This document shows, in pieces, positions 764 to 37,418 of a stretch of 64,000 nt of DNA. The translations under genes and the position numbers were made by a program. The number at the start of each line of letters is the position of its first letter. Position 1 is the first letter of the stretch. The notes under the pieces are model-generated. The model did not search any database. It was not told where the DNA came from and worked only from the letters and a program-made list of their open reading frames with translations. The DNA is from Thermoanaerobaculia bacterium (GTDB lineage Bacteria > Acidobacteriota > Thermoanaerobaculia > UBA5066 > Gp7-AA6), in contig DATKAE010000084.1 in NCBI GenBank assembly GCA_035498405.1, positions 90,544 through 154,543 of the forward strand, given 5' to 3'.

Positions 764-793
764 GAGAGAGCCTCCGAATAGAGAGGAGTGGGT

Positions 794-1291
794 CTAGTGC
801 GACGACCTGCGCGCTTTCAGGTGCTTCTCGATGGTGTGCTTCCAGTGTTCCTCGACGTCCGGCGAATATCCGACCGCCCGATCGATCAGCGACCGGTCGG
901 GCCCGAGGATGAAGGTGGACGGAATCCCCATCGACGTCATCGCCCCGGCTTCTTCGGGAGCGGCGTAGTAGATCGGCAAGGAGAGGTTGTAGCGTTTCAG
1001 GAAGGGCTCGATGCGCCGCCGGTCGGCGTCGATGTTCACCGCCAGAACGACGAAGTTCCGGTCGCTGTAGCGGTCATACATCTTTTGCACGATCGGCAGC
1101 TCCATCCGGCAGGGGCCGCACCAGGTCGCCCAGACGTTCAAGAGAATGACGTTGCCCTTCAGCTGCGAGAGGCGAATGGAGCCCCCGTCGGCGCCCGCCA
1201 GCTCGAGATCCGGGAACGTCGGCGGCGGTTCCTGGGCGGCGGCCACGGACGCAGCGACGGCAAGGGACAAGGCGAGCAGGGGGCCGCGCAT
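794..1291 (-). CDS. TlpA/ResA-family thiol:disulfide oxidoreductase (thioredoxin fold)
   Basis: 165-aa ORF with a signal peptide (MRGPLLALSLAVAASVAAA) and the redox motif WATWCGPC. Confidence 0.8.
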   Translation of the reverse strand: MRGPLLALSLAVAASVAAAQEPPPTFPDLELAGADGGSIRLSQLKGNVILLNVWATWCGPCRMELPIVQKMYDRYSDRNFVVLAVNIDADRRRIEPFLKRYNLSLPIYYAAPEEAGAMTSMGIPSTFILGPDRSLIDRAVGYSPDVEEHWKHTIEKHLKARRSSH

Positions 1292-1395
1292 CGTTTCACG
1301 GAACCATCCGTCCGGGGCGATTATTTCCGCCGTCGGGGGGGAGGGGCCCGGGCGGACCCAAAGGCTCGCCCGTAGCTTAGAATTCGGTACAGATC

Positions 1396-3594
1396 ATGAC
1401 GGTTCCGCCCGCCCCGACGCGCGTCGAGTCCGCGCCGATCCTCCCTTCCGAGCCCGCTGCCTTCTCGCTTCAAGTGGTCCTGTCCGACGCCGCGACCGAC
1501 GGCTCGGGACCCTTCATCGTCCTCTCGGAGGATGAGGACTTCGCGCGCGTCTATTTGGCCGTCTTCAAGGGGACCGCCGACTGCGTCGTGGATTTCGCCG
1601 CGCTGAAGCTTCCGCGCAATACCCATCCGATACCGGTGATTCCCGATGCTTCGCTCAACAACGAGTCGATCGAGGCGCGCTGGAGTCTGGAGTCGGACCG
1701 GCTTCGGGAGCTCTCGTTGGCGGGGCTGCCGGTGCCGCGTTGGCTCCGACCGGGCTCGGAAGGGACCGAGAGGCTTCCACCGCTCCTCTTCTGCCTGCCG
1801 GACCGGCGTTTCTTCTCCCCTCCCTGCCCCCGGTGCGGTGCGGCACTGACGGTTTGCCGAGACGACGCCGTGCTCGCGGCGGCGCGGCTGCCGCTCTTCC
1901 GATCCTCGCTCGAGAGATTTCTCCATTGCCCGCGGTGCGCGGCGGAAAATCCGCCCTCCGCCTTCTACAGCTTCGATGCCCCGGCCGAGACCCCCGAAGG
2001 AGAATTCCTGACGGCGGTGGATCTCTATCGCGACCTCGGGGAGGCTCTCGCCGGCGCGGAGGAATCCGGGGCAGTGGCGGCCTCCTTTCCCTGCTCCGGC
2101 TGCCGAGAGGCCGCTCAGAAGTTTCAGACCGCGTTCGCTTCGGGCACCCGGGCCGCCCCTTTTTGGGAAGGCCGGTGGCAGCCGCTGAACTTCTACGACT
2201 CGCCGTTCGTGCTGACGGGCCTCGGCCAGCTCTCCCTGGACGAGTTTGGAGACTGGTTGGGGGGCCGACCCCGGGATTCCTTCGCCGGGGAGAAGCCGTC
2301 GCCGCATGCGCTCGCGCTCGGAGCGCGGCTGCGCTACCCGGTCGAGTTGGCGAGCGAAGGGCGGCTGCTCTTCGGCGGCGACGGATCCGGCATGGACGCC
2401 GTCGAGATCTTCTTCCTCAAGCTCACGGCCTTCCGGCAGATCGTGGGAGGCCTGCTCGCGTACTGCCGGCATACCGCAAGGCCGCATCTCGATCTTCATC
2501 CGCGCCACGCCCTGTTCGATCTCTCGGCCGCGGGCGAAGGGCTTCCCTCCGCCTGGACGTTCCGGGCCCGGATCCACGGGCTCTCTTCGGCGGCCCGCTC
2601 CGAGCGCTTGGCCGGAGCGGCGGACGTCGTCGTTCCGCCGCGAAACGCCCTTGCCCCGTATGCGCCTCCGGAGGCGCTCGAGTTTCATCTGACCGCCTCG
2701 CGCCCGGCGCAGCTCGTCCTGTCGGAGCTCGAAGCGGTCTCTCCCGGTCGCGACGCCGCGGGCGGCTGGCGCCTTCACGGACGGCTTTCGGATCCCTACG
2801 GAATGTATCCGGAGCCGAGCAATCGCGACTGGATCCTGGTCACGCTCGACAACGAGGCGCTCGGCTTGTCGGCTCTGACCTTCGTGTCCCGCCGGGATCC
2901 TCGAGTGCAGGGGGATCCGCGCGAGGCGCAGTTCATCAGCGAGCCGGTCGCCCTGGAGGAGCTGGCCGCCCAGCGCCTTAGGAAGAGTTTCGGTGTCCGG
3001 ATTCCGGGCGCTCGTTACAAGATCTACGCGGACTTCGGTGCCCCGAGCGACCTCTATTCGCTGGGAATGATCTTGCTTCGGCTGCTGCTCGGCAACGACG
3101 CGCAAGACGCCCGTGGGATCCAGGCGGCGGTCGAGAGGGTCGGCAAGCGGCTGGGCGCCGCGGGAGAAACGACGCTGTCGAGCGTGCTCGCCGGACCCGG
3201 CGCGGCGGCCCTCCTCGAGCGCGATCCCGAGTTGGCGGCGGCTTTCCGCAAGGCCAATGTCTTCTACCAGGCGCTGGACCGCGAGTCCGAGCGGCCCAAC
3301 GCGATTCCCGACGTTCTTTGGAAGCGGGCGCTGCTGTTGGGTCTCCGATTGGCCACGCGGCTGCCCGGCTTCTCGGTGTGCGCCAGTCCAGCCGACTACG
3401 ACGACCTGCATCCGACCGAGAAGATCGAGCGGCTCGGCAACGAGGTCGAGCTTCTCGCGGCGGAGGCGCGAGGCCTCCTCTTCGGCCGGCAGGGAGCGAA
3501 TCTCGAGATCCAGCAGGTCCTCGCGGAGCTGCTGACGGAGAAGGTGATTGAGGAGACGCCCGCGCGACGCGAGGGCGCATCGCGAGTCCCCTAG
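1396..3594 (+). CDS. uncharacterised protein with Cys-pair zinc-ribbon motifs and a degenerate protein-kinase-like core
   Basis: 732-aa ORF with normal amino-acid composition; the antisense ORF 1321..3411 is Arg/Pro-rich junk. Cys pairs CPRCG...CPRC and CSGC. LLAYCRHTARPHLDLHPRHALFD resembles the kinase catalytic loop (HRDLKPxN). SDLYSLGMILLRLLLG resembles kinase subdomain IX. Confidence 0.5.
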   Translation: MTVPPAPTRVESAPILPSEPAAFSLQVVLSDAATDGSGPFIVLSEDEDFARVYLAVFKGTADCVVDFAALKLPRNTHPIPVIPDASLNNESIEARWSLESDRLRELSLAGLPVPRWLRPGSEGTERLPPLLFCLPDRRFFSPPCPRCGAALTVCRDDAVLAAARLPLFRSSLERFLHCPRCAAENPPSAFYSFDAPAETPEGEFLTAVDLYRDLGEALAGAEESGAVAASFPCSGCREAAQKFQTAFASGTRAAPFWEGRWQPLNFYDSPFVLTGLGQLSLDEFGDWLGGRPRDSFAGEKPSPHALALGARLRYPVELASEGRLLFGGDGSGMDAVEIFFLKLTAFRQIVGGLLAYCRHTARPHLDLHPRHALFDLSAAGEGLPSAWTFRARIHGLSSAARSERLAGAADVVVPPRNALAPYAPPEALEFHLTASRPAQLVLSELEAVSPGRDAAGGWRLHGRLSDPYGMYPEPSNRDWILVTLDNEALGLSALTFVSRRDPRVQGDPREAQFISEPVALEELAAQRLRKSFGVRIPGARYKIYADFGAPSDLYSLGMILLRLLLGNDAQDARGIQAAVERVGKRLGAAGETTLSSVLAGPGAAALLERDPELAAAFRKANVFYQALDRESERPNAIPDVLWKRALLLGLRLATRLPGFSVCASPADYDDLHPTEKIERLGNEVELLAAEARGLLFGRQGANLEIQQVLAELLTEKVIEETPARREGASRVP

Positions 3595-3779: not shown

Positions 3780-5747
3780 ATGCCTGAACGCCTGGCTCGA
3801 TCCTCGGATCCCGCCCTCTGTCTGGAAGTTTGGCTCGGCCCGATCGAGGGGATGCGGCACGTGGAGCCGGTGCCCGCCTCGAAGGACGCCGTCGTTCGGA
3901 TCGGGCGACGCCGCGCCGACGAGAAACGCGGCCTCGAGAATCAGTTCGTCCTCGCCGAAGGGGAGGGCGTCTCCTCCTTCCACGCCGAGTTGCGTTGCTC
4001 GGGCGGCAAGCTCTTCCTCAAGGACCTGAAGAGCACCAACGGAACGTTTGCGCGGAACAAGCCGGTCACGGGCGAGATCCCCATCGAATCCGGCGAGATC
4101 TTCTTGCTCTCGACGACTCCGGTGCGGGCCGAGTTGGTCGTCGACCCTCGCACGGAGGTCTCGGCGACGGAGAGCCCGGCGGAGGACCCCGCGGTCTCCT
4201 CGACGCTCAAGAAAATGCTCAGCCTGGCGCGTGAAGCGGCGCGCCGGCGCGGGGAGGCATTCGTCGACAGCCGGCACCTGGCCGAGGCGGTTCTGCGCTC
4301 CGGAGACGCGATCGTCGAGAAGGGCTTCGCTCGGGCGAAACTCTCGCGCGAGGAGGCGCTGGCGGATCTCTGGCGGGGCGGGCTCTTCCACGGGGGCACG
4401 GCCTGGCTCCAGCGGTTTCTTTCCGCGCCCGTTCAGGCGCGCACGATCCCGGACTCACCGGCCCTCTCTCCGCGGGCCCGGCGCGTCATGTCCGCCGCCG
4501 CCATCCGTTTGGCCGCCTATCCGTCGACCGAGGCGGAATCGCTCGCGCCGGTTTTCGTGCTCGCCGCGCTCCTGGCGGCCGGGGAAGGGCCGGTGGGCGG
4601 CTGGTTGAGCGAGAACGGTGTGCGTGCGGAAACCCCTACGCCGCCGCGCCGATCCGCGGGAAGAAAGACGGTCGCCGCGGCGGTGGCGCCGTCGAAGGAG
4701 GGTCGCCTTTCGCGAATCGACGAAGAGACGGTGGTCGCGCCGGTCGCCCGCCGCGAGAAGGCGGCAGCCGAGGCTGCGCGGGCGGAAGAGGAGGGAGCTC
4801 CTGCCACCGCCCTCCTGAGCAAACCGGCTTCGACCGCGGCCCATCCGACGGTGCCGGCCTTCTCGACGACGGGAGACAGCGTCCTCGACCAACGGGCTCG
4901 CGCCATCGCGCTCGAGCTCGAGGAGACGGCCACCTTGTACCGGTTCTCCACACCCGAGGACCGACGCACCGTGATGAAGGCCGTCGTCAACCGCTCGCTC
5001 GCGGCGATCGCGCCCGAAAACCGGACTCGGATTCTTTCGCAGATTCGCGTGCAGTTTCCGGTCGTCGGCGCGCCGCCACCCGCCGAGGCCGACGAGGTTC
5101 CTCGACTATTGCAACGGATCCAGGAGCTCGAGCAGCGCCTGGAGCGTTTGAAAGCGGAGAAGGCGGAGGCGTCGTCGCCCGAAAGGCTCCCCGCGGGTGC
5201 CGTGCCCTGGAAGGCCCTCTTGGCCGAGCGGCCGCCCGAGCCGCCCGCGACGGAGGGAGCCGACTTGCCTGCCCTCCATGCGCTGCTGACCTTCGCCCGG
5301 CACATGGAGCGCTTTCTTCTCGGCCTCGTTCAGGGCGTGACGATGCCCGGCGACGCGACGATGAGTTTTCGGCTGCCCGGCCACCGGTATACGCTGGAGG
5401 GGCTTCTTTCCGGATTGGAGCAGGGGAAACCGGTGGATCCGAAGACGGTTTCGGAGTATCTGCGCGAGCTGGAGCGCTGGCAAGTGGCGATTCTCGCGGC
5501 GCACCACGAATCCGCGCGGCTTTGGTTTGACAAACTCTGGAAGCGCGCGAGCCCGGCGGCGATCGAAGCTTCGACGGCCAAGGGCGGGACCTGGAAGATT
5601 CGCGGGGAGGCCACGGAATGGTGGAGCCGATACAAGGAAACGGTCAAAGGCCTGACGCCGGATGTGGTGCAGGACCAGGTGCTGCAAACCACGTTTCGGC
5701 TCGCTCAGGAGGAGTTCGACAAGCTTTCGAAGCGGAGGCAGTCATGA
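3780..5747 (+). CDS. tagH: T6SS-associated FHA-domain protein (TagH/Fha-like) with an internal Clp_N-like double repeat
   Basis: N-terminal FHA signature VVRIGRRR...SSFHAELRCSGGKLFLKDLKSTNGTF. Two Clp_N-like repeats (LSLAREAARRRGEAFVDSRHLAEAVL... and LSPRARRVMSAAAIRLA...VFVLAALLAAGEG). Its stop overlaps the tssJ start (ATGA). Confidence 0.75.
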   Translation: MPERLARSSDPALCLEVWLGPIEGMRHVEPVPASKDAVVRIGRRRADEKRGLENQFVLAEGEGVSSFHAELRCSGGKLFLKDLKSTNGTFARNKPVTGEIPIESGEIFLLSTTPVRAELVVDPRTEVSATESPAEDPAVSSTLKKMLSLAREAARRRGEAFVDSRHLAEAVLRSGDAIVEKGFARAKLSREEALADLWRGGLFHGGTAWLQRFLSAPVQARTIPDSPALSPRARRVMSAAAIRLAAYPSTEAESLAPVFVLAALLAAGEGPVGGWLSENGVRAETPTPPRRSAGRKTVAAAVAPSKEGRLSRIDEETVVAPVARREKAAAEAARAEEEGAPATALLSKPASTAAHPTVPAFSTTGDSVLDQRARAIALELEETATLYRFSTPEDRRTVMKAVVNRSLAAIAPENRTRILSQIRVQFPVVGAPPPAEADEVPRLLQRIQELEQRLERLKAEKAEASSPERLPAGAVPWKALLAERPPEPPATEGADLPALHALLTFARHMERFLLGLVQGVTMPGDATMSFRLPGHRYTLEGLLSGLEQGKPVDPKTVSEYLRELERWQVAILAAHHESARLWFDKLWKRASPAAIEASTAKGGTWKIRGEATEWWSRYKETVKGLTPDVVQDQVLQTTFRLAQEEFDKLSKRRQS

Positions 5748-6217
5748 ACGACGAATCCTGGCCCTGTCGCCTGCCACGGGTTTTCGGCACGCTTCTGTTG
5801 CCGGCGCTCCTTCTTTCGGCATGGGGGTGCGCGAGCTCTTCCACGCTGGACTTTCGCTGCGACTCGCCGATCAACGGAGGGCTCCTGCTGACGGTGGACA
5901 TCGTTCGGGCCAACGAGGCCCAGGCCCGGCAAATCGAGGCCCTCGGGGAGAAGTGGTTCTACGATCCGATGCGCGACACACTACGTGATCACACGACGAC
6001 GGTCACGTTCCCGACGAAGGACACCTCGGGGCTCTGCGAGCGCCATCTCTCGATCAAGGCCGAGGGAAAGGACAAGTTCCTCGTCATCATCGCGGACTAC
6101 AAGTACCAGAGCCCGGATGCGAGCCGGCAGCTCGTGGCACTGCCCTCGGATCGCTGGAAGGGGAAGACCCTCGACATCGCGGTTCACGACCGCGAGCTCT
6201 CCGTCTCGACGCACTGA
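5744..6217 (+). CDS. tssJ: T6SS outer-membrane lipoprotein TssJ
   Basis: Internal ATG at 5744 overlaps the tagH stop. Signal/lipobox-like LLLPALLLSAWGCASS. About 157 aa, placed directly before tssK-L-M. Confidence 0.65.
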   Translation: MNDESWPCRLPRVFGTLLLPALLLSAWGCASSSTLDFRCDSPINGGLLLTVDIVRANEAQARQIEALGEKWFYDPMRDTLRDHTTTVTFPTKDTSGLCERHLSIKAEGKDKFLVIIADYKYQSPDASRQLVALPSDRWKGKTLDIAVHDRELSVSTH

Positions 6218-6255: not shown

Positions 6256-7623
6256 ATGAGCAAGACGCCGGAGGTGCACTGGTCGGAGGGCATGTTCCTG
6301 CGGCCGCACCACCTTCAACTGGCGGAGCGCCATCGGGGCGAACAGTTGCGTCAGGAGGTTCGGCGGCTCCAGCCCTTCTTCTGGGGAATCCTGAAGATCG
6401 ACATCGCGGCCGACCAACTCGAGAACTTCACGTTCGAAGTCCGTGACGCCGAAATGAAGCTCAAGGACGGAACGTCGCTTTCGCTCGCCTCGAACCTGAA
6501 GCTTCCGTCGCGCAGTTTCAAGGCGGAGCTCGACCAGGCGGGCGGGCGCATGCCGGTGTACGTGGGCATCCCGTCCTGGCGGGAGCTGGACGCCAACACG
6601 ATCGAGCCCGGAGAGAAGGAGGGTGGCCAGAACCGACGATACAGTGTCGAGACCCTGTCGGTCTTGGACGAGAACTCCGGCGCCAATTCGCAGCCGATCG
6701 ATGTGCGCAGGGCCAACGGACGGTTCTTCTTCGGCGCCGAGAGCCGCGAGGGATACGAATGTCTGCCGATCGCGTTGGTCGAGCGCTCGGGACAGGGCAA
6801 GAACACGCCGGTACTGTCCGCGGAATTCATCCCACCGGTGACGGAGCTCGGCGCCTGGCCGGTGTTGGAAAACCTCTGCCAATCGGTGAACAATCGGCTG
6901 GAGGCCAAGCACCGCTTTCTCGCGGGGGAGATCGCCGAAGGCAAGCTCACGGTGGACTCCGAAGGCACCACCGGATGGCAGCCAATCCTGAAGCTCCAGA
7001 TTCTGGGGTCGTTCCTCTATCTCTTCCAGCAGCTGACGCGGATTCCGCGGATTCATCCCTTCACGGTGTACGTCGAGTTTTGCCGTCTGGTCGGCGAGCT
7101 TTCCATGTTCTCCGGCGAACGCCAGCCACCCCGCGTGCCGCTGTACGACCACGACAACCTGGGGCCGTGCTTCTTCGAGATCACCCACACGCTCGAGATG
7201 CTGGCCGAGAAGATCGTGGCTTCCCGGTACATCAAGGTGGACTTCAAGATTCGGGAGGATCTGCTGGTCGCGGAGCTCGCACCCGAGTGGCTCGCCCCCG
7301 AAACCGAGGTCTACCTGCTGATCGAGTCGGAGCTCGACGAGAAGGACGTCAAGGGCCGAATCGAGGTCATGAAGCTCGGAACGGTCGCCGATATCCCCCT
7401 CCTGAAGCAGCGACGGCTCTTCGGCCTCGACGTCGAGATGTTGAAACGGGTGCCCTCCGGTTTGCCGGCGCGGGAAGATTACTTCTACTTCTCCATCGAG
7501 AAGGACGGGCCGTACTTCGCCAACGTCGTGCGAGACCGCATCATCGCGATCGCCGGAGCGACCGACCCGAAGATGAAGTTCGCGCTCTACATCGTCTTGA
7601 AGCCCGGAGGCGCCCGTGGATAA
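6256..7623 (+). CDS. tssK: T6SS baseplate subunit TssK
   Basis: N-terminus VHWSEGMFLRPHHLQ is the typical TssK signature. 455 aa. GAGGAA RBS upstream. Confidence 0.9.
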   Translation: MSKTPEVHWSEGMFLRPHHLQLAERHRGEQLRQEVRRLQPFFWGILKIDIAADQLENFTFEVRDAEMKLKDGTSLSLASNLKLPSRSFKAELDQAGGRMPVYVGIPSWRELDANTIEPGEKEGGQNRRYSVETLSVLDENSGANSQPIDVRRANGRFFFGAESREGYECLPIALVERSGQGKNTPVLSAEFIPPVTELGAWPVLENLCQSVNNRLEAKHRFLAGEIAEGKLTVDSEGTTGWQPILKLQILGSFLYLFQQLTRIPRIHPFTVYVEFCRLVGELSMFSGERQPPRVPLYDHDNLGPCFFEITHTLEMLAEKIVASRYIKVDFKIREDLLVAELAPEWLAPETEVYLLIESELDEKDVKGRIEVMKLGTVADIPLLKQRRLFGLDVEMLKRVPSGLPAREDYFYFSIEKDGPYFANVVRDRIIAIAGATDPKMKFALYIVLKPGGARG

Positions 7624-8308
7624 GCCTCGCGACAACACCGCCGAGCTCTTTCGCGTGACCTCGAAGCTCTTTCTCTTCCTGACCGCCTTCCGCCGGAGGG
7701 TGCGCAAGGGACTGCGCGTCGAGCTGCGAGATGTGTCCGACCGGCTCGACGAGATCTTCTCCGAGCAGGCGCGCGAGTCTCGGGACGAGCCTCGGCTCGA
7801 GGCGCTCTACGAGAAGGCGCGATATCCGCTGGTCGTGTTGGCCGACGAGATCCTGCTGCATTCGGGTTGGGAGTATGCGCCGCAGTGGGAAAGGCAGCTT
7901 CTCGAGGAGAAATATTTCAACACGAACATCGGCGGTGAAAAGTACTTCTCGATCGCCAACGAGCTCGACCCGGCCAAGGACACGGAGCTCGCCGCGATTC
8001 TCTCGACGGGCATCGCTTTGGGGTTCGGTGGCAAGTACCGCGAGCGGCCGGAAAAGCTCGCCGAGGCCCGCAAACGCCTGGTTCGCATGAACGCCGAATG
8101 GCTCGCCACACTGGGCGACAAGATCACGCCCGAGGCCTACCACGTGCTGCCGCAGCCCGGGCGGAAGCTTTCGCCGCTGATCAATCTCTACCGCGTCCTG
8201 ATCGTGGCTTTCGGCGTCCTCGTCCTCTACTACATCTTGGCGTTCGCGCTTTGGGGCTCGTCGATGGGGGAGCTACGCAAAGTGGCGGCCGCCCTGGGGC
8301 TGTCCTAG
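7616..8308 (+). CDS. tssL: T6SS membrane-complex subunit TssL (DotU/IcmH family)
   Basis: 230 aa. Overlaps the tssK end by 8 nt. DotU-like core (YPLVVLADEILL) and a single C-terminal TM helix (LYRVLIVAFGVLVLYYILAFALW). No peptidoglycan-binding extension. Confidence 0.85.
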   Translation: MDKPRDNTAELFRVTSKLFLFLTAFRRRVRKGLRVELRDVSDRLDEIFSEQARESRDEPRLEALYEKARYPLVVLADEILLHSGWEYAPQWERQLLEEKYFNTNIGGEKYFSIANELDPAKDTELAAILSTGIALGFGGKYRERPEKLAEARKRLVRMNAEWLATLGDKITPEAYHVLPQPGRKLSPLINLYRVLIVAFGVLVLYYILAFALWGSSMGELRKVAAALGLS

Positions 8309-8309
8309 C

Positions 8310-11300
8310 ATGTACGAACTCCTCGATCTTCTGGGGCGGCTGCCGCGCCCGCTCAAGTACCTCGGCACGATCCTCCTGCTCATCCCGGTGGTCTACGTGA
8401 TCTCGCGTTGGTTGGGCGTCGAGAAGTACTGGTGGGTGTTCGTTCTCGGGATGCTCGTCATCGCCCTGGCGCTCGCTCTCTTCAACATGGCGCTGCGGGC
8501 GAGGGAGAAGCGGCAGGCGAGCGCATTCGAAGGAGAGCTGCGGCGCGACTCCCAAAAAGCGGGCGCCTCCAAGGAGGAGGTCCGTCAGGCCTTAGGCGAT
8601 CTGGCGGCCAAGTGGTCCGAGTCGGTCAACCAGCTGAAGCAGTCGGGCCTCTCCGTCTACTCACTGCCCTGGTACCTCCTGATCGGCGAGCCTCAGTCAG
8701 GAAAGTCGACCACCCTCAAGAACTCGGGACTGGAGTTCCCCGTCGGGACCGAAGGGCTATCCGGCGCTGGGGGCACGCGAAACTGCGACTGGTGGTTCGC
8801 CAACGAGGCGGTGATCCTCGACACGGCCGGCCGATTCACCTTTCAGGAGGAGGCCGCACCGGACCAGCAGGAGTGGAGCTCCTTCCTGAAGCTGCTGCGC
8901 CGATACCGGAAATACTGCCCCGTCAACGGCGTCATCGTCGTCATCCCGTGCACGTCGTTGCTCGAGGACCCGCCCGAGGAGCAGGAGCGAAAGGCCGCCA
9001 ACATCCGAGCCAAGCTCCTACACGTTCAGCGCGTCCTGCAGATCCGGTTTCCGGTCTTCATCATGGTGACGAAAGCCGACCGGATTCTCGGCTTCGCCGA
9101 GTTCTTCCTGAAGCTCGACCCCGTCGATCAGCAGCAGCTCTTCGGCTGGTCGAGTCCCGAGGGGCCGGGGAAGGCCTGGGATCCGGAAAGCTTCGACGGA
9201 GTCTACGACGCCATCGTGGAGCGGCTCTACAAGCTTCGCCTGAAGCTGCTCGGCGACGAAGAGAATCCCGCCCAGGCCGACAAGCTCTACGTCTTCCCCG
9301 AGGAGTTCCGTGCCATGCGGACTCCGCTCAAGGGGTACTTGAAGACGATCTTTCAGCAGACGCGCTTCGACGAGCCGTTCGCCTTCCGCGGCTTCTACGT
9401 CTCGAGCGGCGTGCAGCAGGGCCGCCCCATCGCTCAGGCGACACGGGACCTGCTCGAGGCTCCGGGAGGCGCGGCCGAGGGCGCCATCGAGAGCCTCGAG
9501 AGTATTTTCAAGAAGTCTCGGGCCTTCTTCATCCGTCACTTCTACGAAAAGAAGGTCTTTCCCGAGCAGGGTCTGATCACCCGAACGGCAGCAGCCGAGG
9601 TTCAGCAGCGGCGCACCCTTTGGCTGGTTCGCGGACTGGGTGTCCTGGTCCTGCTCCTGTTCCTGGGCGGCATGATCCCCGCTTACAACTCCCTTCAGAA
9701 GGTCTTGAATCCCATCCGGCGAGACGTGAAGACGGCACAGGAGTGCGCGCTGAAAGGCTGCACGGTCTCTCGCTCCTGGGAAGTCGCGAGGGGCCTCCAG
9801 GAGGATCGCGACCGAGTGCTGGCGCGCCGCTGGGTCTTCGCACTGTTCCTACGGGGCACCCGGTCCAACGAGCTGACCGACACGCTCGCCCGAATCCAGC
9901 AGAAGGTGTACCTCGGAGGCGTCGTCGCGCCGCTACTGGCCGAGACCGAGGGCCGGATGGCCGCTCTCGACTGGGAGACCTTCGGCGACTACCAGTCTTT
10001 CCGTGCGGCGCTCTCGGCCGAGCTCGACTGGGTGGCGTTCAAGAAGCCGCCCGAGACACCGATCGTGCGGGCCGAGGAGCTGCGCGCCTTGCCGCTAGTC
10101 GACTTCGTTCGCAAGACCAAGGGAATGAAGGGAAGCGAGAAGTCCGCGGAGATCGACGAATGGGTGAGCAAGCTGCCGGCGGCGGACCCGGCGCCCGACC
10201 ACGTCCTCGAGGGCTCCCGGCTGCATTCCCCACTCGCGATCGCGGTCCCCGACCCCGCCGGCGCGCTCGCCAAGTACGAGGAATTTTGGTCGGTCGGCAA
10301 CCTCGCCCGATGGGACGCGAAGCTGCAGGATGGTCTGGCGCGGTATGTGGCGCTCTACCAACAGATGACCTCGGTGCCGAAGACGGCGCCGCCGGCTTAT
10401 CTCGGCCAGGTGGCTGATCCCGGGAAGAAGTTCAAGGAGAACTTCGAGCGGCTCACACGGCACATGGGAACGCCGCGTCCGGGGGAGAAGGGGTTTCCCG
10501 GCGCCACTCTGGATCAGTGGAAGAAGTACTTGAACGAAGACTACGCGGCGCTGATCAAGTGGAATCCCATTGCCCCGGGTTGGATCTCCGAGTCTCGTCA
10601 CAACGCGCTCCTCGCGCGGCTCGACACGGACCACCAGACTCTGCGGACTCGAGAATCCGAGCTCGCGTACCTGATCGAAAAGGATCCGACCGGCAAGGTG
10701 AAGTGGTCGAAGCCGGCTGAGTCGCTGGGCGGCGTCTTGAACGATCTCGCGGGCTTCACCGACCTGACGGCCTACGCCGCCTCCGAGGACGGCCGCCTGC
10801 TCGAGACATTGCGAGCCGAGCCCTCCTGGACGGAGAAGCCCAAGAAGATCGACGCTTGGCGGATGCGTCAAGACTCGCTCGCCAAGGCGATTCTGACGAA
10901 GTCCTCGGACCTCTCGACAGCGAGTCCCGATCCGCGCTTCCAGTGGGCCGATCGCCGTCCCATCGTTGATCAGACGACACAGCTCGCTCTGGTCTGGCGA
11001 ACCCTCTCGGTCGCGCAGCCCTTCTTCGAGGAATCTCTGGTCACGCAATGTCCCGCCGGCAACTGCTTCCAGCCGGCCTTCGCGCGGGCGATGATCCCCT
11101 CGGCGAGCGCGATCGTCTCGGCGGCCTCGGCGCAGCTCGTGGCCCTTCGCTCCTTCGAGGGGGCCGCTCCGGCGGTGACCGCGCTGGCGGACACCGAGGC
11201 GACGTACCTCCGGCGATACATCGATCAGATGTCGGGCCATGCCGGGGGCGGCGGCTTTGCGTTCCCCGACGCGGCGGCCGGTGCGGGAACCTGGCCCGCA

Positions 11301-12521
11301 TTTCAGAGGGCGATCTCCTCCTGGCAACCATCGGGAGGAGGAGCATCGGCCGCGCCGGACGCGTCGGGACAACTCACGAGCGCGGACCTCGAGCAGTTCG
11401 CCGCCGCCAATCAGTATCTCGCCCCGGTGCTCGAGGAGTACCGCCGCCGCATCGAGCGGCCCCGACTGGCGGCGGCAGCCGAGAAGGCCGCGCCGGAGTT
11501 GATCGCTGCGGCCGAGTCGTTTCGCGGAGCCGTGACCGGAGTCTCGGATCAGCCGCTCAAGGCCTGGAGACAACTCTCGACGGGAGAGGGGGGTCAGTCG
11601 CTCAAGCAGTACAAGGCCTTCTCGGACAATCCCCGGCTGCGCAGCGACCCGACGGCGCTGCGCCTCAAGCGTTCGGTCGAAGACCACGGCGCGCATCTGC
11701 TGCGGGACGCCATTCGTCCACAGTTCGCTCCCAGGGCCGCGGAGGCCTACGGGCGAATCAGCGGATGCTGCCTCGGAAAGTTCCCGTTGATCAACGAGAT
11801 GCAGTTGCAAACCGAAAGGGCGCAGCTCGCCTCGGGCCAGGGATATTCCCGGGGCGGTCCGGCCGGGGCCGCGGTCTATCGCATCGAAGTACCGACGATC
11901 GGTCTCTCAGACCTTTCCGGACCCCTCTCGGAGTTCGGCGCGATCGCCTCCGAGTTCGCGATCGATCCCATCCTCCGCGGCGAGGCGAACGAGTTCGATT
12001 TCGTGGGGGCCGAGCGGCCCGTTCTGGCGGTTGCCCGCGCCTGGCAGCTCTTCATCTACGGCGTCAACGCACCGCCCGGCGCGACGGCCAAGCCGCACGC
12101 GATCGAAGTCCGGTCGATCGAGCGCACACCCTCGGCCGGCACGATCTTCCTCGGAGATCGGGTGGGCCAGGTGACTCTCTTCGATCGCGCGACGATCCTG
12201 CGTCCCTCGACCGACGTCAAGTCAGGGCGTACGCCGCCGCCTTACGTCTGGCGTCTCTCCTCGGCGGACTCGCCGCTCGAGATCATCGGCCGCAATGAGG
12301 ACGTGAAGGGCGGATGGACCGGGTCGCTGGTCATCGGGGGCGGCCCGTTGAAGCTGTTCGGCTACGTTCTCAGGGCGAGCGAGGACCGCCGGCCGGGCGC
12401 CGATCCTCGGGTCTGGGACATTCGAGTCGAGATTCCCGACGCTGAGAGACCGAGCAGTCGACTTCAGGGAGTCTTCGAGTTGAAGCTCGACGATCCGCTG
12501 CCCGGTGTGATCCCGCGATAG
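8310..12521 (+). CDS. tssM: T6SS membrane-complex subunit TssM (IcmF family)
   Basis: 1403 aa. N-terminal TM helices and Walker A GEPQSGKST. Follows tssL by 1 nt. Confidence 0.9.
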   Translation: MYELLDLLGRLPRPLKYLGTILLLIPVVYVISRWLGVEKYWWVFVLGMLVIALALALFNMALRAREKRQASAFEGELRRDSQKAGASKEEVRQALGDLAAKWSESVNQLKQSGLSVYSLPWYLLIGEPQSGKSTTLKNSGLEFPVGTEGLSGAGGTRNCDWWFANEAVILDTAGRFTFQEEAAPDQQEWSSFLKLLRRYRKYCPVNGVIVVIPCTSLLEDPPEEQERKAANIRAKLLHVQRVLQIRFPVFIMVTKADRILGFAEFFLKLDPVDQQQLFGWSSPEGPGKAWDPESFDGVYDAIVERLYKLRLKLLGDEENPAQADKLYVFPEEFRAMRTPLKGYLKTIFQQTRFDEPFAFRGFYVSSGVQQGRPIAQATRDLLEAPGGAAEGAIESLESIFKKSRAFFIRHFYEKKVFPEQGLITRTAAAEVQQRRTLWLVRGLGVLVLLLFLGGMIPAYNSLQKVLNPIRRDVKTAQECALKGCTVSRSWEVARGLQEDRDRVLARRWVFALFLRGTRSNELTDTLARIQQKVYLGGVVAPLLAETEGRMAALDWETFGDYQSFRAALSAELDWVAFKKPPETPIVRAEELRALPLVDFVRKTKGMKGSEKSAEIDEWVSKLPAADPAPDHVLEGSRLHSPLAIAVPDPAGALAKYEEFWSVGNLARWDAKLQDGLARYVALYQQMTSVPKTAPPAYLGQVADPGKKFKENFERLTRHMGTPRPGEKGFPGATLDQWKKYLNEDYAALIKWNPIAPGWISESRHNALLARLDTDHQTLRTRESELAYLIEKDPTGKVKWSKPAESLGGVLNDLAGFTDLTAYAASEDGRLLETLRAEPSWTEKPKKIDAWRMRQDSLAKAILTKSSDLSTASPDPRFQWADRRPIVDQTTQLALVWRTLSVAQPFFEESLVTQCPAGNCFQPAFARAMIPSASAIVSAASAQLVALRSFEGAAPAVTALADTEATYLRRYIDQMSGHAGGGGFAFPDAAAGAGTWPAFQRAISSWQPSGGGASAAPDASGQLTSADLEQFAAANQYLAPVLEEYRRRIERPRLAAAAEKAAPELIAAAESFRGAVTGVSDQPLKAWRQLSTGEGGQSLKQYKAFSDNPRLRSDPTALRLKRSVEDHGAHLLRDAIRPQFAPRAAEAYGRISGCCLGKFPLINEMQLQTERAQLASGQGYSRGGPAGAAVYRIEVPTIGLSDLSGPLSEFGAIASEFAIDPILRGEANEFDFVGAERPVLAVARAWQLFIYGVNAPPGATAKPHAIEVRSIERTPSAGTIFLGDRVGQVTLFDRATILRPSTDVKSGRTPPPYVWRLSSADSPLEIIGRNEDVKGGWTGSLVIGGGPLKLFGYVLRASEDRRPGADPRVWDIRVEIPDAERPSSRLQGVFELKLDDPLPGVIPR

Positions 12522-12528
12522 TGCGACG

Positions 12529-13542
12529 ATGGAGGACACGTCGGCGCGCCGGCCCGGGTTCCTGTCGCGGCTGAAAGACGGCTTGCGCGGCGCCCCCCGG
12601 GGCGAGGAGCCGGTGCCGACGGTTCGTGTCGCGCTGAACGCGTACGGGAAGCTGCCGATCTACAAGGACTTCATTTCGGCAGGTCTGACCGAGCCCGGAG
12701 CCCGCGAATTTCGCAACTGGATCGACCGGGGGTTCTCTCACCGGTGGTCGACCGATGAGGCGTACAGGGACATCGAAATCCCAAGGCACCTCTTTCTCCT
12801 GCGCCTTCCCGAGTCCGGCGTCTTCGTCATCGGGTGCCTGTGGGGGAGCCAGGACGAGGGAGGGCTGCGCCGATTTCCGTTCACCCTGTTCGCTACCATT
12901 CCCGGCGGTCATCGCGCCGCGGATCCTCTGACCGCGACCGAAAGCCTCGAAGCGATGAACCGCCAGGCGGACGCCGTCGGCAAGGACTTCGGGCCAGGCG
13001 GCTCGCTTGCGGGCTTCTACCGGGCATACCGCGGAGCGGAGCTCGACCTTCCCGTCAAGCCGCCCAAGCGAATTCGACGGGAGGCGCAGGGCGAGCTCGA
13101 GCGAGTCACGATCTCGTCCTTTGCTCACGTGCTCTATGGCGATGAGGCACCTGTCGAGTGGCCGGCCCTACTGGCGCGCCTCACGTCCTTCGCACGGGAG
13201 CCCCGAGAGGACGGTGTTCGCGCGGTGCGCTTGCCGCTTTCGGGGGCTCTGACGCGGGCGCGTGAAATGCAGTTCTGGCTGCTCTGGCTCGATGCGCGAG
13301 GGCCGCGCCACGAGGTTTCGGGGCTGCTGTACGCGCCGGGGAGCTCGCCCGCCCGCGTGGCGCTTCTCCAGCGCGACCTACGTCCGGAGGACTTCTTTCT
13401 ACTCCACCCGGCCCGGTTCGAGTATCCGTTCGCCGCGGACTTCTCGGCCCGACCCGCTCCTGCGCAGGAAGCTCCTGCACCTCAGGCGGCCTCCGTCCCG
13501 GCGGGGTGGGACCGGCCGCTCTCCTCGCTGCTCGAGACGTGA
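12529..13542 (+). CDS. tagF: T6SS accessory protein TagF (DUF2094)
   Basis: 337 aa. N-terminal YGKLPIYKDFIS matches the TagF GKLPxxGDF motif. Placed directly after tssM. Confidence 0.8.
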   Translation: MEDTSARRPGFLSRLKDGLRGAPRGEEPVPTVRVALNAYGKLPIYKDFISAGLTEPGAREFRNWIDRGFSHRWSTDEAYRDIEIPRHLFLLRLPESGVFVIGCLWGSQDEGGLRRFPFTLFATIPGGHRAADPLTATESLEAMNRQADAVGKDFGPGGSLAGFYRAYRGAELDLPVKPPKRIRREAQGELERVTISSFAHVLYGDEAPVEWPALLARLTSFAREPREDGVRAVRLPLSGALTRAREMQFWLLWLDARGPRHEVSGLLYAPGSSPARVALLQRDLRPEDFFLLHPARFEYPFAADFSARPAPAQEAPAPQAASVPAGWDRPLSSLLET

Positions 13543-35927: not shown

Positions 35928-37418
35928 TCAACCTTCGAACGTCCCGAGCCGTGATGGGGGGTCGGCCACCGATTGGAGCCGCGCCATGCGGACGACATCT
36001 CGATCCGGCAGTGCCATGACCGCCATGACGCCTCGTTCGAGCATCGCTTCGGCGACCGAGAGCGGCAGGGACGTCTCGGCGCACGGCTGCAGTCGGCTCT
36101 CGCCGTCGTCCTCGTAGACGTGCAGGGGAAGTCCTGTTAGGGTCCCGGGGGACTCGAGGAGGGCGAGGCAGAGCAGAGCAGGATTTCCCCAGAGGTAGCT
36201 GTCGTGGTCCGGAGTACCTTCGAACTCCTCGAAGGCGAAGTGCTCGGCCGGGTCGGTCCGCCCACCGTAGGGCAGGCGGAGCAGGAAGCGCGGCGCGGCA
36301 AGCCCCAGGTATCGCGCCTCGGGCAGGTGGCGAAGGGCCGCCCAGAGCTCCTCGACGGGCTCGCCCTGCGACTTCAGCCACCGCCGGGGATCCGGAGCGG
36401 ACGCGAAGGAGTCGCAGGCGAGAAGCGAGGGAGCCGCGGCGGAGAGAAACGGAGCATTGGCGGCGGCGGCCACCTTTCCGACGCGGGCGAGTAGGGCGAC
36501 GTCTTCGACCGTCGGACCGAATTCGTAGAGCCCTGCCACGGCGCTCCACGGTGACGCTCCCGGTGTGTCGCGCACCGAGCCGACGAGGATGCGGTAGAGG
36601 CCGGAGTCGGAGAGCTCGCTGGCGCCCTTTGCGTCGAGGGCGAGCTCTTCCTTTGTGGCGTCGAGAATCTCGACGCGCAGGTCTTCGCCGGTCTCCACAT
36701 GCCGGAGCAGGAAGACGAGACCCCGCCAGGCGGCCTCGATCCCCTGGAAGGCCGGGTCGTGCAGGACGCGGCGCATCCGGGCACCGATCTCCTGGTCGGC
36801 CCGAATGATTAGCCGTTCCTTCTCGCCGCCCCCGGCTCGCTCGAGGTGGGGCGTCACGATCTGCTCAACGAAGGCCTCGAAGTCGCCGCTCTTAGACTTG
36901 GGAGACGGGGTTGCTCCGCTGGTCGCGAGGATCTCCTCCAGAAGGCCCGGTGCCTCCGGTCCGTCACTCGGGGTCCCCGGCGGCGGCTCGCGACGGGCCG
37001 CCGTCTGCTGCGCCGACCACGCCCGGACCGCGGCGGCGGCCTCGTCGAACCGCTCGGGATCCTCGAGCCCTTGACGGATTCGCCGAAGATCGTGGAATGC
37101 GGGCTCCCGCAACAGGAGTCGGTCGGGATGAAGGTCGTCGAGGCTCCGAGGGCGAAATAAAGGGCCGGTCCCCTCCGCCGAAGCGAGTCGGATCTCGACG
37201 GAAAGGCGTGCAAAGAGAGCGTCCAAGTTATCGATATCCACGGCAATCGGGCGGCGCTCGGGGCCGAGCGGCTCTCGGACGAGACGGCTGGCCCGGTCGG
37301 AGAAGTCGCCGATGACGAGGAGGCGTCGCCGCTCCTCCGGATCGATGCGGGGCTCTTCTTCCTCCCGAGAGGAGACGAGAAAGGCCTCGGCTCGGTCCGG
37401 ATGTGCAAAGGTCGGCAT
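35928..37418 (-). CDS. fused TssB-like/TssC-like sheath paralog, truncated at both ends relative to canonical TssB+TssC
   Basis: 496 aa. The N-terminal part LLVIGDFSD...IAVDIDNLDALFARLSVEI...SLDDLHPDRL parallels TssB (VLGVLGDFSG...IEIDRDNFDQVLAGMAPRL...SLQDFEPDNV). The rest, HDPAFQGIEAAWRGLVFLL, AAANAPFLSAAAPSLL, RYLGLAAPRFLLRLPYG and YLWGNPA, parallels TssC. Confidence 0.7.
   Translation of the reverse strand: MPTFAHPDRAEAFLVSSREEEEPRIDPEERRRLLVIGDFSDRASRLVREPLGPERRPIAVDIDNLDALFARLSVEIRLASAEGTGPLFRPRSLDDLHPDRLLLREPAFHDLRRIRQGLEDPERFDEAAAAVRAWSAQQTAARREPPPGTPSDGPEAPGLLEEILATSGATPSPKSKSGDFEAFVEQIVTPHLERAGGGEKERLIIRADQEIGARMRRVLHDPAFQGIEAAWRGLVFLLRHVETGEDLRVEILDATKEELALDAKGASELSDSGLYRILVGSVRDTPGASPWSAVAGLYEFGPTVEDVALLARVGKVAAAANAPFLSAAAPSLLACDSFASAPDPRRWLKSQGEPVEELWAALRHLPEARYLGLAAPRFLLRLPYGGRTDPAEHFAFEEFEGTPDHDSYLWGNPALLCLALLESPGTLTGLPLHVYEDDGESRLQPCAETSLPLSVAEAMLERGVMAVMALPDRDVVRMARLQSVADPPSRLGTFEG

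Follow-up and report, generated by a model that had tools for sequence, protein, structure and literature searches.

Post-translational control in type VI secretion systems (T6SS) is known almost solely from the PpkA-PppA-Fha pathway of a few Proteobacteria. The Hanks-type kinase PpkA (TagE), Fha1/TagH, PppA and TagF make up this threonine-phosphorylation pathway in Pseudomonas aeruginosa H1, Serratia, Agrobacterium and Acidovorax (PMC3953482; PMC10482370; PMC12607579). Fha is an assembly scaffold (PMC12607579), TagF binds or sequesters Fha in the systems studied (PMC5995506), and the PpkA of Acidovorax acts partly as a scaffold that forms condensates with Fha (PMC12607579). How TagH works in systems without PpkA was raised as an explicit open question in a 2023 review of T6SS regulation (PMC10482370), and undiscovered accessory genes are expected outside the model organisms according to a 2026 review of T6SS accessory factors (PMC13584744). 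Neither review mentions a pseudokinase, and our targeted literature searches found no description of a T6SS pseudokinase or of a kinase-like partner of TagH. In this study, we report the analysis of a kinase-like (KL) gene in a stretch of 64,000 nt (the window) from a Thermoanaerobaculia bacterium of the phylum Acidobacteriota (assembly GCA_035498405.1, contig DATKAE010000084.1, positions 90,544 to 154,543). The 732-aa open reading frame (ORF) of this gene, at 1396-3594 (+), had been noticed in a first-pass annotation made from the letters alone; translation confirmed it and revealed no internal stops. On balance, we favour the view that KL is a non-canonical, probably non-catalytic pseudokinase adaptor, the partner of TagH, which controls TagH-dependent assembly. 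KL is probably an undescribed control part of the T6SS, and its family is a concrete candidate for the missing TagH partner.

Like PpkA, KL has a kinase fold, its gene stands next to that of TagH in a T6SS cluster where TagF is present too, and it would be expected at the TagH-dependent assembly checkpoint. Unlike PpkA, which has a canonical Pkinase domain at its N-terminus, one transmembrane segment and a periplasmic vWA-type domain, KL matches neither Pkinase nor vWA in Pfam and has no transmembrane segment, being a soluble, cytoplasmic protein (the highest 19-residue Kyte-Doolittle mean was 1.39). It has also lost the Gly-rich loop, the DFG Asp and, within the catalytic loop, both the Lys and the Asn; its core is interrupted by a predicted zinc module and by a beta-barrel; no PppA partner is encoded in its cluster; and in some lineages it is fused to TagH. 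By analogy, KL appears most like the pseudokinase-FHA pairs of type VIIb secretion (T7SSb) and of mycobacterial cell-wall control, set in the PpkA/TagH slot of a T6SS. The T7SSb pseudokinase YukC binds the FHA domains of YukB (bioRxiv 10.1101/2020.05.09.085852). In YukC/EssB with YukB/EssC, a secretion machine has a dead kinase fold as its central adaptor, which contacts a partner through the FHA domains of the latter, an arrangement that is proposed for KL. In contrast to KL, YukC/EssB is a membrane protein that belongs to type VIIb secretion in another phylum; the FHA domains of YukB lack the phosphothreonine-binding residues, whereas the FHA domain of TagH in the window keeps them; and no specific sequence relationship between YukC/EssB and KL was detectable. 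In mycobacteria, as cited in PMC3953482, a true Hanks kinase phosphorylates the pseudokinase domain of MviN in trans, whereupon this domain recruits FhaA (Gee et al., 2012). Given the 91 Hanks kinases of our source genome, the MviN-FhaA pair can serve as a model for TagH recruitment, by analogy only: MviN, unlike KL, acts in cell-wall synthesis, and its pseudokinase domain belongs to a flippase-like membrane protein. Two further analogies concern single features. CASK, an atypical kinase with reported Mg-independent catalysis, lacks the DFG Asp as well as the Asn of the catalytic loop, and KL likewise lacks these two Mg ligands and keeps the VAIK Lys and the catalytic Asp. PknG, a kinase of the non-RD type, carries a rubredoxin-type Cys4 domain, and its partner and substrate GarA is an FHA protein; KL resembles it in its predicted Cys4 module(s) and its putative FHA-protein partner, but the rubredoxin domain of PknG precedes the kinase domain, unlike the insert between beta4 and beta5 in KL. 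Neither CASK nor PknG was among the PDB profile matches of KL, and no specific sequence relationship to either was found.

The KL protein alone gave nothing useful when searched against Pfam (no match at E up to 0.1, and none to PF00069 above the gathering threshold), NCBIfam and PDB sequences, and a 15-bit NCBIfam match to DnaX was discarded as noise. With the whole AlphaFold2 model (pLDDT 81.8, pTM 0.82), weak Foldseek matches to beta-barrels (FNR/SIP, UPF1 1B) dominated, none of them significant, and the sole kinase, Haspin, stood at rank 41. Both results speak for the explanation that the resemblance to kinases is convergent or due to chance and that the fold is an unrelated one. We regard it as most improbable in view of the family profiles and of the motifs. 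The hhalign comparison of 33 diverse KL-family members against 30 Pkinase domains from the same genome gave Prob 96.3% (E 1.8e-9), with query residues 43-620 collinear with kinase positions 17-266, against 0.3% for the reversed-sequence control; the close KL clade alone reached 92.4% (E 5e-7). The kinase homology was recovered by the kind of remote-homology search that the first-pass annotation had proposed as a check. The VAIK-Lys, alphaC-Glu, HxD, DxG, APE and alphaF Asp motifs occur in collinear order along the protein. The matches of the family profile among PDB sequences were almost all kinases. A LAMMER-like kinase came first (E 0.005), and its alignment covers the catalytic loop, the DFG and alphaF. 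In addition, a graded series of relatives reaches the canonical HLDLKPEN/DLG: in the distant members P0111, P0163, P0188, P0210 and P0211, the catalytic loop has the canonical form HLDLKPEN, and (L/V)IDL(G/A) comes after it, where the DFG is expected. Two of them, P0163 and P0188, obtain 24-26 bits with the Pkinase model of Pfam (profile positions 102-153), below the cut-off of 31.7, and a cluster mate of P0111 bears the IMG label 'serine/threonine protein kinase'.

Structure prediction, the other check proposed at the outset, gave an element order that is kinase-like according to DSSP: beta1-3, alphaC (89-108), beta4/5, alphaE (333-360), beta7 (372-376), beta8 (389-393) and alphaF (549-565). 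When residues 1-435, free of the barrel, were modelled separately (pLDDT 79.5), 46 of the 50 top Foldseek matches were protein-kinase-like, each with E >0.1 and about 80-100 aligned columns, which also argues against an unrelated fold. They include RIO kinases, PRPK/Bud32, PERK, DDR1, EGFR, DYRK, Wee1, ULK1, APH(3') and the kinase domain of a lanthipeptide synthetase. The kinase fold of KL is thus established by the profiles and qualitatively backed by the predicted structure. Judged from these comparisons of sequences, the KL protein is a descendant of a Hanks-type Ser/Thr kinase that has kept the bilobal core.

The kinase N-lobe (aa 36-140; 1501..1815, as all following features of KL on the forward strand) comprises beta1-beta3 with the AALK motif (Lys71), alphaC at 89-108 with Glu99, and beta4, as placed by hhalign (query 43-122 on kinase 17-85) and by DSSP of the AlphaFold2 models. 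The GxGxxG motif of the Gly-rich loop is missing, and the aligned segment reads LSEDEDFARV. In the first-pass annotation, Cys pairs were thought to stand instead of an N-lobe. The strings it quoted, CPRCG (144-148), CPRC (178-181) and CSGC (233-236), are present and the Gly-rich loop is indeed absent, but the N-lobe with Lys71 and Glu99 precedes them, and the Cys-rich segment is inserted between beta4 and beta5. Cys conservation points to a double Cys4 zinc module in this segment (aa 133-255; 1792..2160), with predicted metal binding. Site A, formed by C144, C147, C178 and C181, reads CCCC in 151 of 191 full-length family members, and candidate site B, formed by C133, C154, C233 and C236, does so in 124 of them; in this set the C233/C236 CxxC pair never occurs without C133. 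The following segment (aa 256-292; 2161..2271) holds beta5, the hinge and an alphaD equivalent, assigned by hhalign, with an LGG motif whose G289 and G290 are nearly invariant, and it is separated by a loop of low confidence in the AlphaFold2 model (aa 293-330) from the segment (aa 331-435; 2386..2700) with alphaE, the catalytic loop, beta7/8, the DFG-equivalent, the activation segment and an APE-like motif (PYAPPE, 421-426).

The catalytic loop lies within LLAYCRHTARPHLDLHPRHALFD (aa 353-375), the string in which the resemblance to HRDLKPxN had been noticed. In the family alignments it is H364-L-D366-L-H368-P-R-H371 (2485..2508), that is, HLDLHPRH in place of the canonical HxDLKPxN, so that Asp366 is kept and the Lys and Asn are both replaced by His (His368 and His371), just as had been claimed. 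The earlier choice of IHG (393-395) as the DFG-equivalent was right about the loss of the Asp and one residue off in register. Relatives read (L/V)IDLG(S/A) here, and in H394-G395-L396-S397 (2575..2586) the column of the DFG Asp is Gly395, the DFG-equivalent is G395-L396-S397 and His394 is the DFG-1 residue. KL has lost both Mg-binding residues (Asn to His371, DFG Asp to Gly395) and the Gly-rich loop, a loss that fits the original suggestion of a pseudokinase or an atypical kinase. It must be noted that the VAIK Lys71 and the alphaC Glu99 are retained. In the clade of the window, whose members are adjacent to an FHA gene and share 38-80% identity, K71, E99, H364, D366, H368, H371, H394 and G395 are essentially invariant; in the sister clade, which has no FHA neighbour, K71, E99 and H394 drift. 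Constraint thus acts on the cleft in the clade of the window, and this cleft may bind a nucleotide or a metal or even support atypical catalysis. New here are the precise register of the DFG-equivalent, the cleft with His substitutions specific to this lineage, and the second, candidate Cys4 site.

Between APE/alphaEF and alphaF, a beta-barrel (aa 436-545; 2701..3030; AlphaFold2 strands 436-544) is placed where the substrate groove opens. This barrel carries a conserved SDPYG..P.P..D478W motif in which G469, P472, P474 and D478 are invariant, and its partial Foldseek matches to FNR/SIP-type and UPF1-1B-type barrels were not significant. After this insertion, which had been correctly described as long and as followed by a match to kinase subdomain IX (SDLYSLGMILLRLLLG, aa 551-566), the last segment (aa 546-720; 3031..3555) contains alphaF (PSDLYSLG, with Asp552), the helical remainder of the C-lobe and a C-terminal helical extension. 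Asp552 is present in 187 of the 191 members.

All 84 close homologues of KL are labelled 'hypothetical' and come from metagenome-assembled genomes (MAGs) of Acidobacteriota/Thermoanaerobaculia. Clustered at 50% identity, the wider family amounts to 899 representative clusters if E up to 1e-3 is accepted, 567 of which are found at 1e-10, and it occurs in Acidobacteriota, Planctomycetota and unclassified environmental metagenome contigs. KL shows the hallmarks of the family, namely a kinase-like core of about 650-760 aa, Cys-rich and beta-barrel inserts, and the invariant residues E337, K342, P369, D552, G557 and W642. No Pfam or NCBIfam model covers it. The 191 full-length members were scored at six positions (VAIK-Lys, alphaC-Glu, HRD-Asp, catalytic-loop Lys, catalytic-loop Asn and DFG-Asp). 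The K-E-D-H-H-G type of the window was found in 75 of them, a type that is over-sampled, the close homologues being in the set. The Lys, Asp, Asn and Asp are all kept in just 10 members, and 5 are fully canonical. Six members in which KL is fused to TagH all read K-E-(G/A)-x-N-D, with the catalytic Asp lost and both Mg ligands kept. On a FastTree tree of 114 representatives, built with the catalytic columns removed, the state changed at least 14 times for the catalytic Asp, at least 12 times for the DFG Asp and at least 14 times for the Asn, and complete catalytic sets are scattered so that at least 7 changes are needed. These repeated losses across the tree, whose count is also new, suggest that phosphotransfer is not what holds the family together. 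The family offers a natural series, from fully canonical through variously degenerate to TagH-fused forms, for studying the change from kinase to scaffold inside a molecular machine.

These data also bear on the possibility that KL is an atypical but active kinase, a soluble replacement of PpkA that phosphorylates TagH or TssL without the canonical Mg ligands, by Mg-independent catalysis or by catalysis with a transition metal bound by His368, His371 and His394. It is the main rival to our reading, although we consider it rather unlikely. Lys71, Glu99 and the catalytic Asp366 are nearly invariant in the clade, with His368, His371 and His394 equally conserved; the neighbouring FHA domain retains its phosphothreonine-binding residues, yet the cluster encodes no kinase; and some family members have the complete canonical catalytic set, one cluster member even being labelled as a Ser/Thr kinase in IMG. 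Against such an activity, the Gly-rich loop is missing, other residues stand in place of both Mg ligands and of the Lys in the catalytic loop, and catalytic residues have been lost repeatedly, and in differing combinations, across the family. Furthermore, the existence of TagH-fused forms without the catalytic Asp makes phosphotransfer an unlikely conserved function of the family, and no cognate phosphatase is encoded in the cluster.

The genomic position of KL was compared in 40 close loci, all of them Acidobacteriota MAGs except one labelled Acidithiobacillales. Co-occurrence with tagH and tagF in relatives had been put forward as a check, and the order KL-FHA-TssJ-TssK-TssL-TssM-TagF was found in 29/29 close loci (identity of at least 38%, downstream sequence available). 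The spacer between KL and FHA in these loci is often just 15-50 nt, or the genes overlap. In metagenome loci whose KL shares only 25-31% identity with the window protein, TssK-L-M(-TagF-TssA) lies downstream in all 13 with enough flank, and the ORF directly after KL carries the FHA motifs IGR / SSxHA / GSTNGT in all 8 with a translated KL-TssK gap. KL and FHA occur in one chain in the clusters P0139 (Planctomycetota, MCA8951005.1), P0148, P0165, P0170, P0178 and P0195, all but P0165 also having T6SS_FHA_C, and the P0139 fusion directly precedes TssJ?-K-L-M-TagF. There are exceptions: in a clade of about 33% identity, KL stands directly downstream of a TssB-TssC fusion paralogue and there is no FHA gene, and P0210 has no T6SS gene within 10 kb. 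In a census of 401 Acidobacteriota genomes, the KL family was present in 4 of the 44 TssK-positive and in 0 of the 357 TssK-negative ones (hypergeometric probability about 1.3e-4, a value that makes the case look too strong since relatives are not independent). The 4 KL-positive genomes have a lower-scoring type of TssK, and therefore the KL family marks one T6SS lineage. The putative partnership of KL with the FHA protein TagH, already proposed in the first-pass annotation, is supported by this adjacency, invariant over deep divergence, and by the six fusion clusters.

The same loci allow another alternative to be judged, in which KL, for all its kinase-like fold, is no assembly regulator but an effector secreted by the T6SS or an adaptor of its cargo. 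The gene does lie within a T6SS cluster, and kinase-fold effectors exist in other secretion systems. However, KL heads the tssJKLM operon and stands outside the vgrG/PAAR/DUF2169 cargo module, its position is constant over deep divergence, it is fused in some lineages to TagH, which is a cytoplasmic assembly factor, and no adjoining immunity-like gene was seen. An effector role is, in consequence, very improbable.

In the mechanism that we favour, the pseudokinase KL would no longer carry out canonical Mg-ATP phosphotransfer. It would bind TagH, gating whether TagH nucleates TssJLM/TssK membrane-baseplate assembly, and would work against TagF, whose gene closes the conserved block. The scaffold role of the Acidovorax PpkA makes a non-catalytic version plausible. 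Given that the FHA domain in the window keeps its phosphothreonine-binding residues, TagH could dock in two ways. A Hanks kinase, out of the 91 that the genome encodes, might phosphorylate KL or TssL in trans, TagH then docking on the phosphothreonine as in the MviN-FhaA type, or the contact between FHA domain and pseudokinase might be phospho-independent, as in the YukC-YukB type.

Several observations weigh against this proposal. The near-invariance of Lys71, Glu99 and Asp366, residues that a pure scaffold could dispense with, points to nucleotide binding or residual catalysis. The conservation of His368, His371 and His394, as high as that of the catalytic residues, suggests a specific metal or phosphate chemistry and not decay. 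In the clade alignment, a conserved exposed Thr that could be the FHA docking site was looked for and not found, T274 of the hinge strand alone being nearly invariant. Finally, not one Foldseek match of the whole model or of the 1-435 fragment was significant. In this regard, a bolder idea, which we hold to be rather doubtful, is that His368, His371 and His394 form with Asp366 and Lys71 a transition-metal or phosphate site in a rebuilt cleft. With the two Cys4 sites, KL would then be a metal/redox- or nucleotide-gated switch, or an Mg-independent kinase, licensing TagH-dependent T6SS assembly. If this is true, KL would be a kinase-fold sensor that stands where the T6SS firing pathway begins and that has a novel chemistry of catalysis or of ligand binding.

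As the first-pass annotation had stated, the T6SS cluster includes TagF and no canonical PpkA or PppA: no Pkinase (PF00069) or PP2C (PF13672/PF00481) match was obtained in the 64,000 nt of the window. Elsewhere the same genome has two PP2C loci and, for Pkinase, 91 matches. The idea of a canonical kinase conserved in cis was considered and rejected: of 65 related loci, just 4 have one within 10 kb of KL, which does not exceed the density of kinases in the genomes. One of these is in the MAG labelled Acidithiobacillales, where a 946-aa frame with a canonical Hanks kinase domain (L020:2242-5080, +) stands directly upstream of KL (5146) and in the same direction. The loci L018, L041 and L047 likewise have a kinase within 10 kb, in a sporadic pattern, and these four kinases could be natural trans-acting partners.

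KL is a single-copy gene in the source genome (3.98 Mb, 139 contigs) and the first gene (1396..3594, +) of the T6SS membrane-complex operon. It is followed by the gene of the TagH-like FHA protein (3780..5747, +; 655 aa), which matches PF00498 (E 3.5e-11) and, weakly, T6SS_FHA_C. Its FHA domain retains, by reading of the sequence, the GR / SxxH / NG residues of phosphothreonine binding. The adjacency of the two genes had been noted before with a distance of 186 bp; with the start of the FHA gene at 3780, the measured gap is 185 nt. The TssJ-like lipoprotein gene (5744..6217, +) has a lipobox (..LSAWGC) and a position that is kept in relatives, and it gave no match in the Pfam scan. The ORF was listed as 5618-6217, and its likeliest start is the ATG at 5744 (M43), which gives a lipoprotein signal ...LLLPALLLSAWGC in the TssJ position. 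The overlap of this start codon with the stop codon of tagH points to translational coupling. The conserved block is completed by TssK (6256-7623, +), TssL (7616-8308, +), TssM (8310-12521, +) and TagF (12529-13542, +). TagF has 337 aa, of which residues 39-142 only are covered by the TagF_N domain; the C-terminal residues, about 190, have no Pfam match, and no PP2C signal was found in the TagF of the window. At the corresponding position Agrobacterium has a TagF-PppA fusion. Beyond TagF, three Hcp genes, TagJ, TssA, TssB/C, TssE/F/G, ClpV, VgrG and a DUF2169 cargo module complete the T6SS cluster, the vgrG/PAAR/DUF2169 module being located at 27-35 kb of the window, away from KL.

Upstream of KL, a divergent gene encodes an AhpC/TSA-redoxin of 165 aa (794..1291, -; PF00578, E 3.8e-18). 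This gene is the upstream boundary and makes KL the first gene of its operon. The 195-aa ORF at 788-1375 (+) was rejected as a gene, as it is the antisense shadow of the redoxin gene. The divergent intergenic region between the redoxin gene and KL is 104 nt long, and a search for a sigma-70-like promoter in it found none.

Some members of the family deserve separate mention. P0163 (L049) and P0188 (L052), which look canonical, are long (1070-1112 aa), with C-terminal tails of about 350 aa without a Pfam domain; phmmer with TagH did not find a TagH-like domain in these extensions. Both genes are divergent from tssJKLM, in T6SS clusters without a separate FHA gene, and the tail may replace TagH. 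In a genome of the same class as that of the window, a KL-family match lies in a 1060-aa frame with one in-frame TGA (G256:C26:1924-4017), on a contig other than that of TssK. This frame may stem from read-through or fusion of KL and TagH, or it may be a pseudogene or an artefact of assembly. The TssB-TssC fusion paralogue (PF05943), located in the window at 35928..37418 (-), that is, 32 kb off, adjoins KL in the loci L041-L047, L051 and L055-L065. It is upstream of KL on the same strand in the clade of about 33% identity and divergent upstream in loci from soil metagenomes. This recurrent adjacency is a further new observation, and KL and the TssBC-fusion paralogue seem to travel together with the T6SS lineage.

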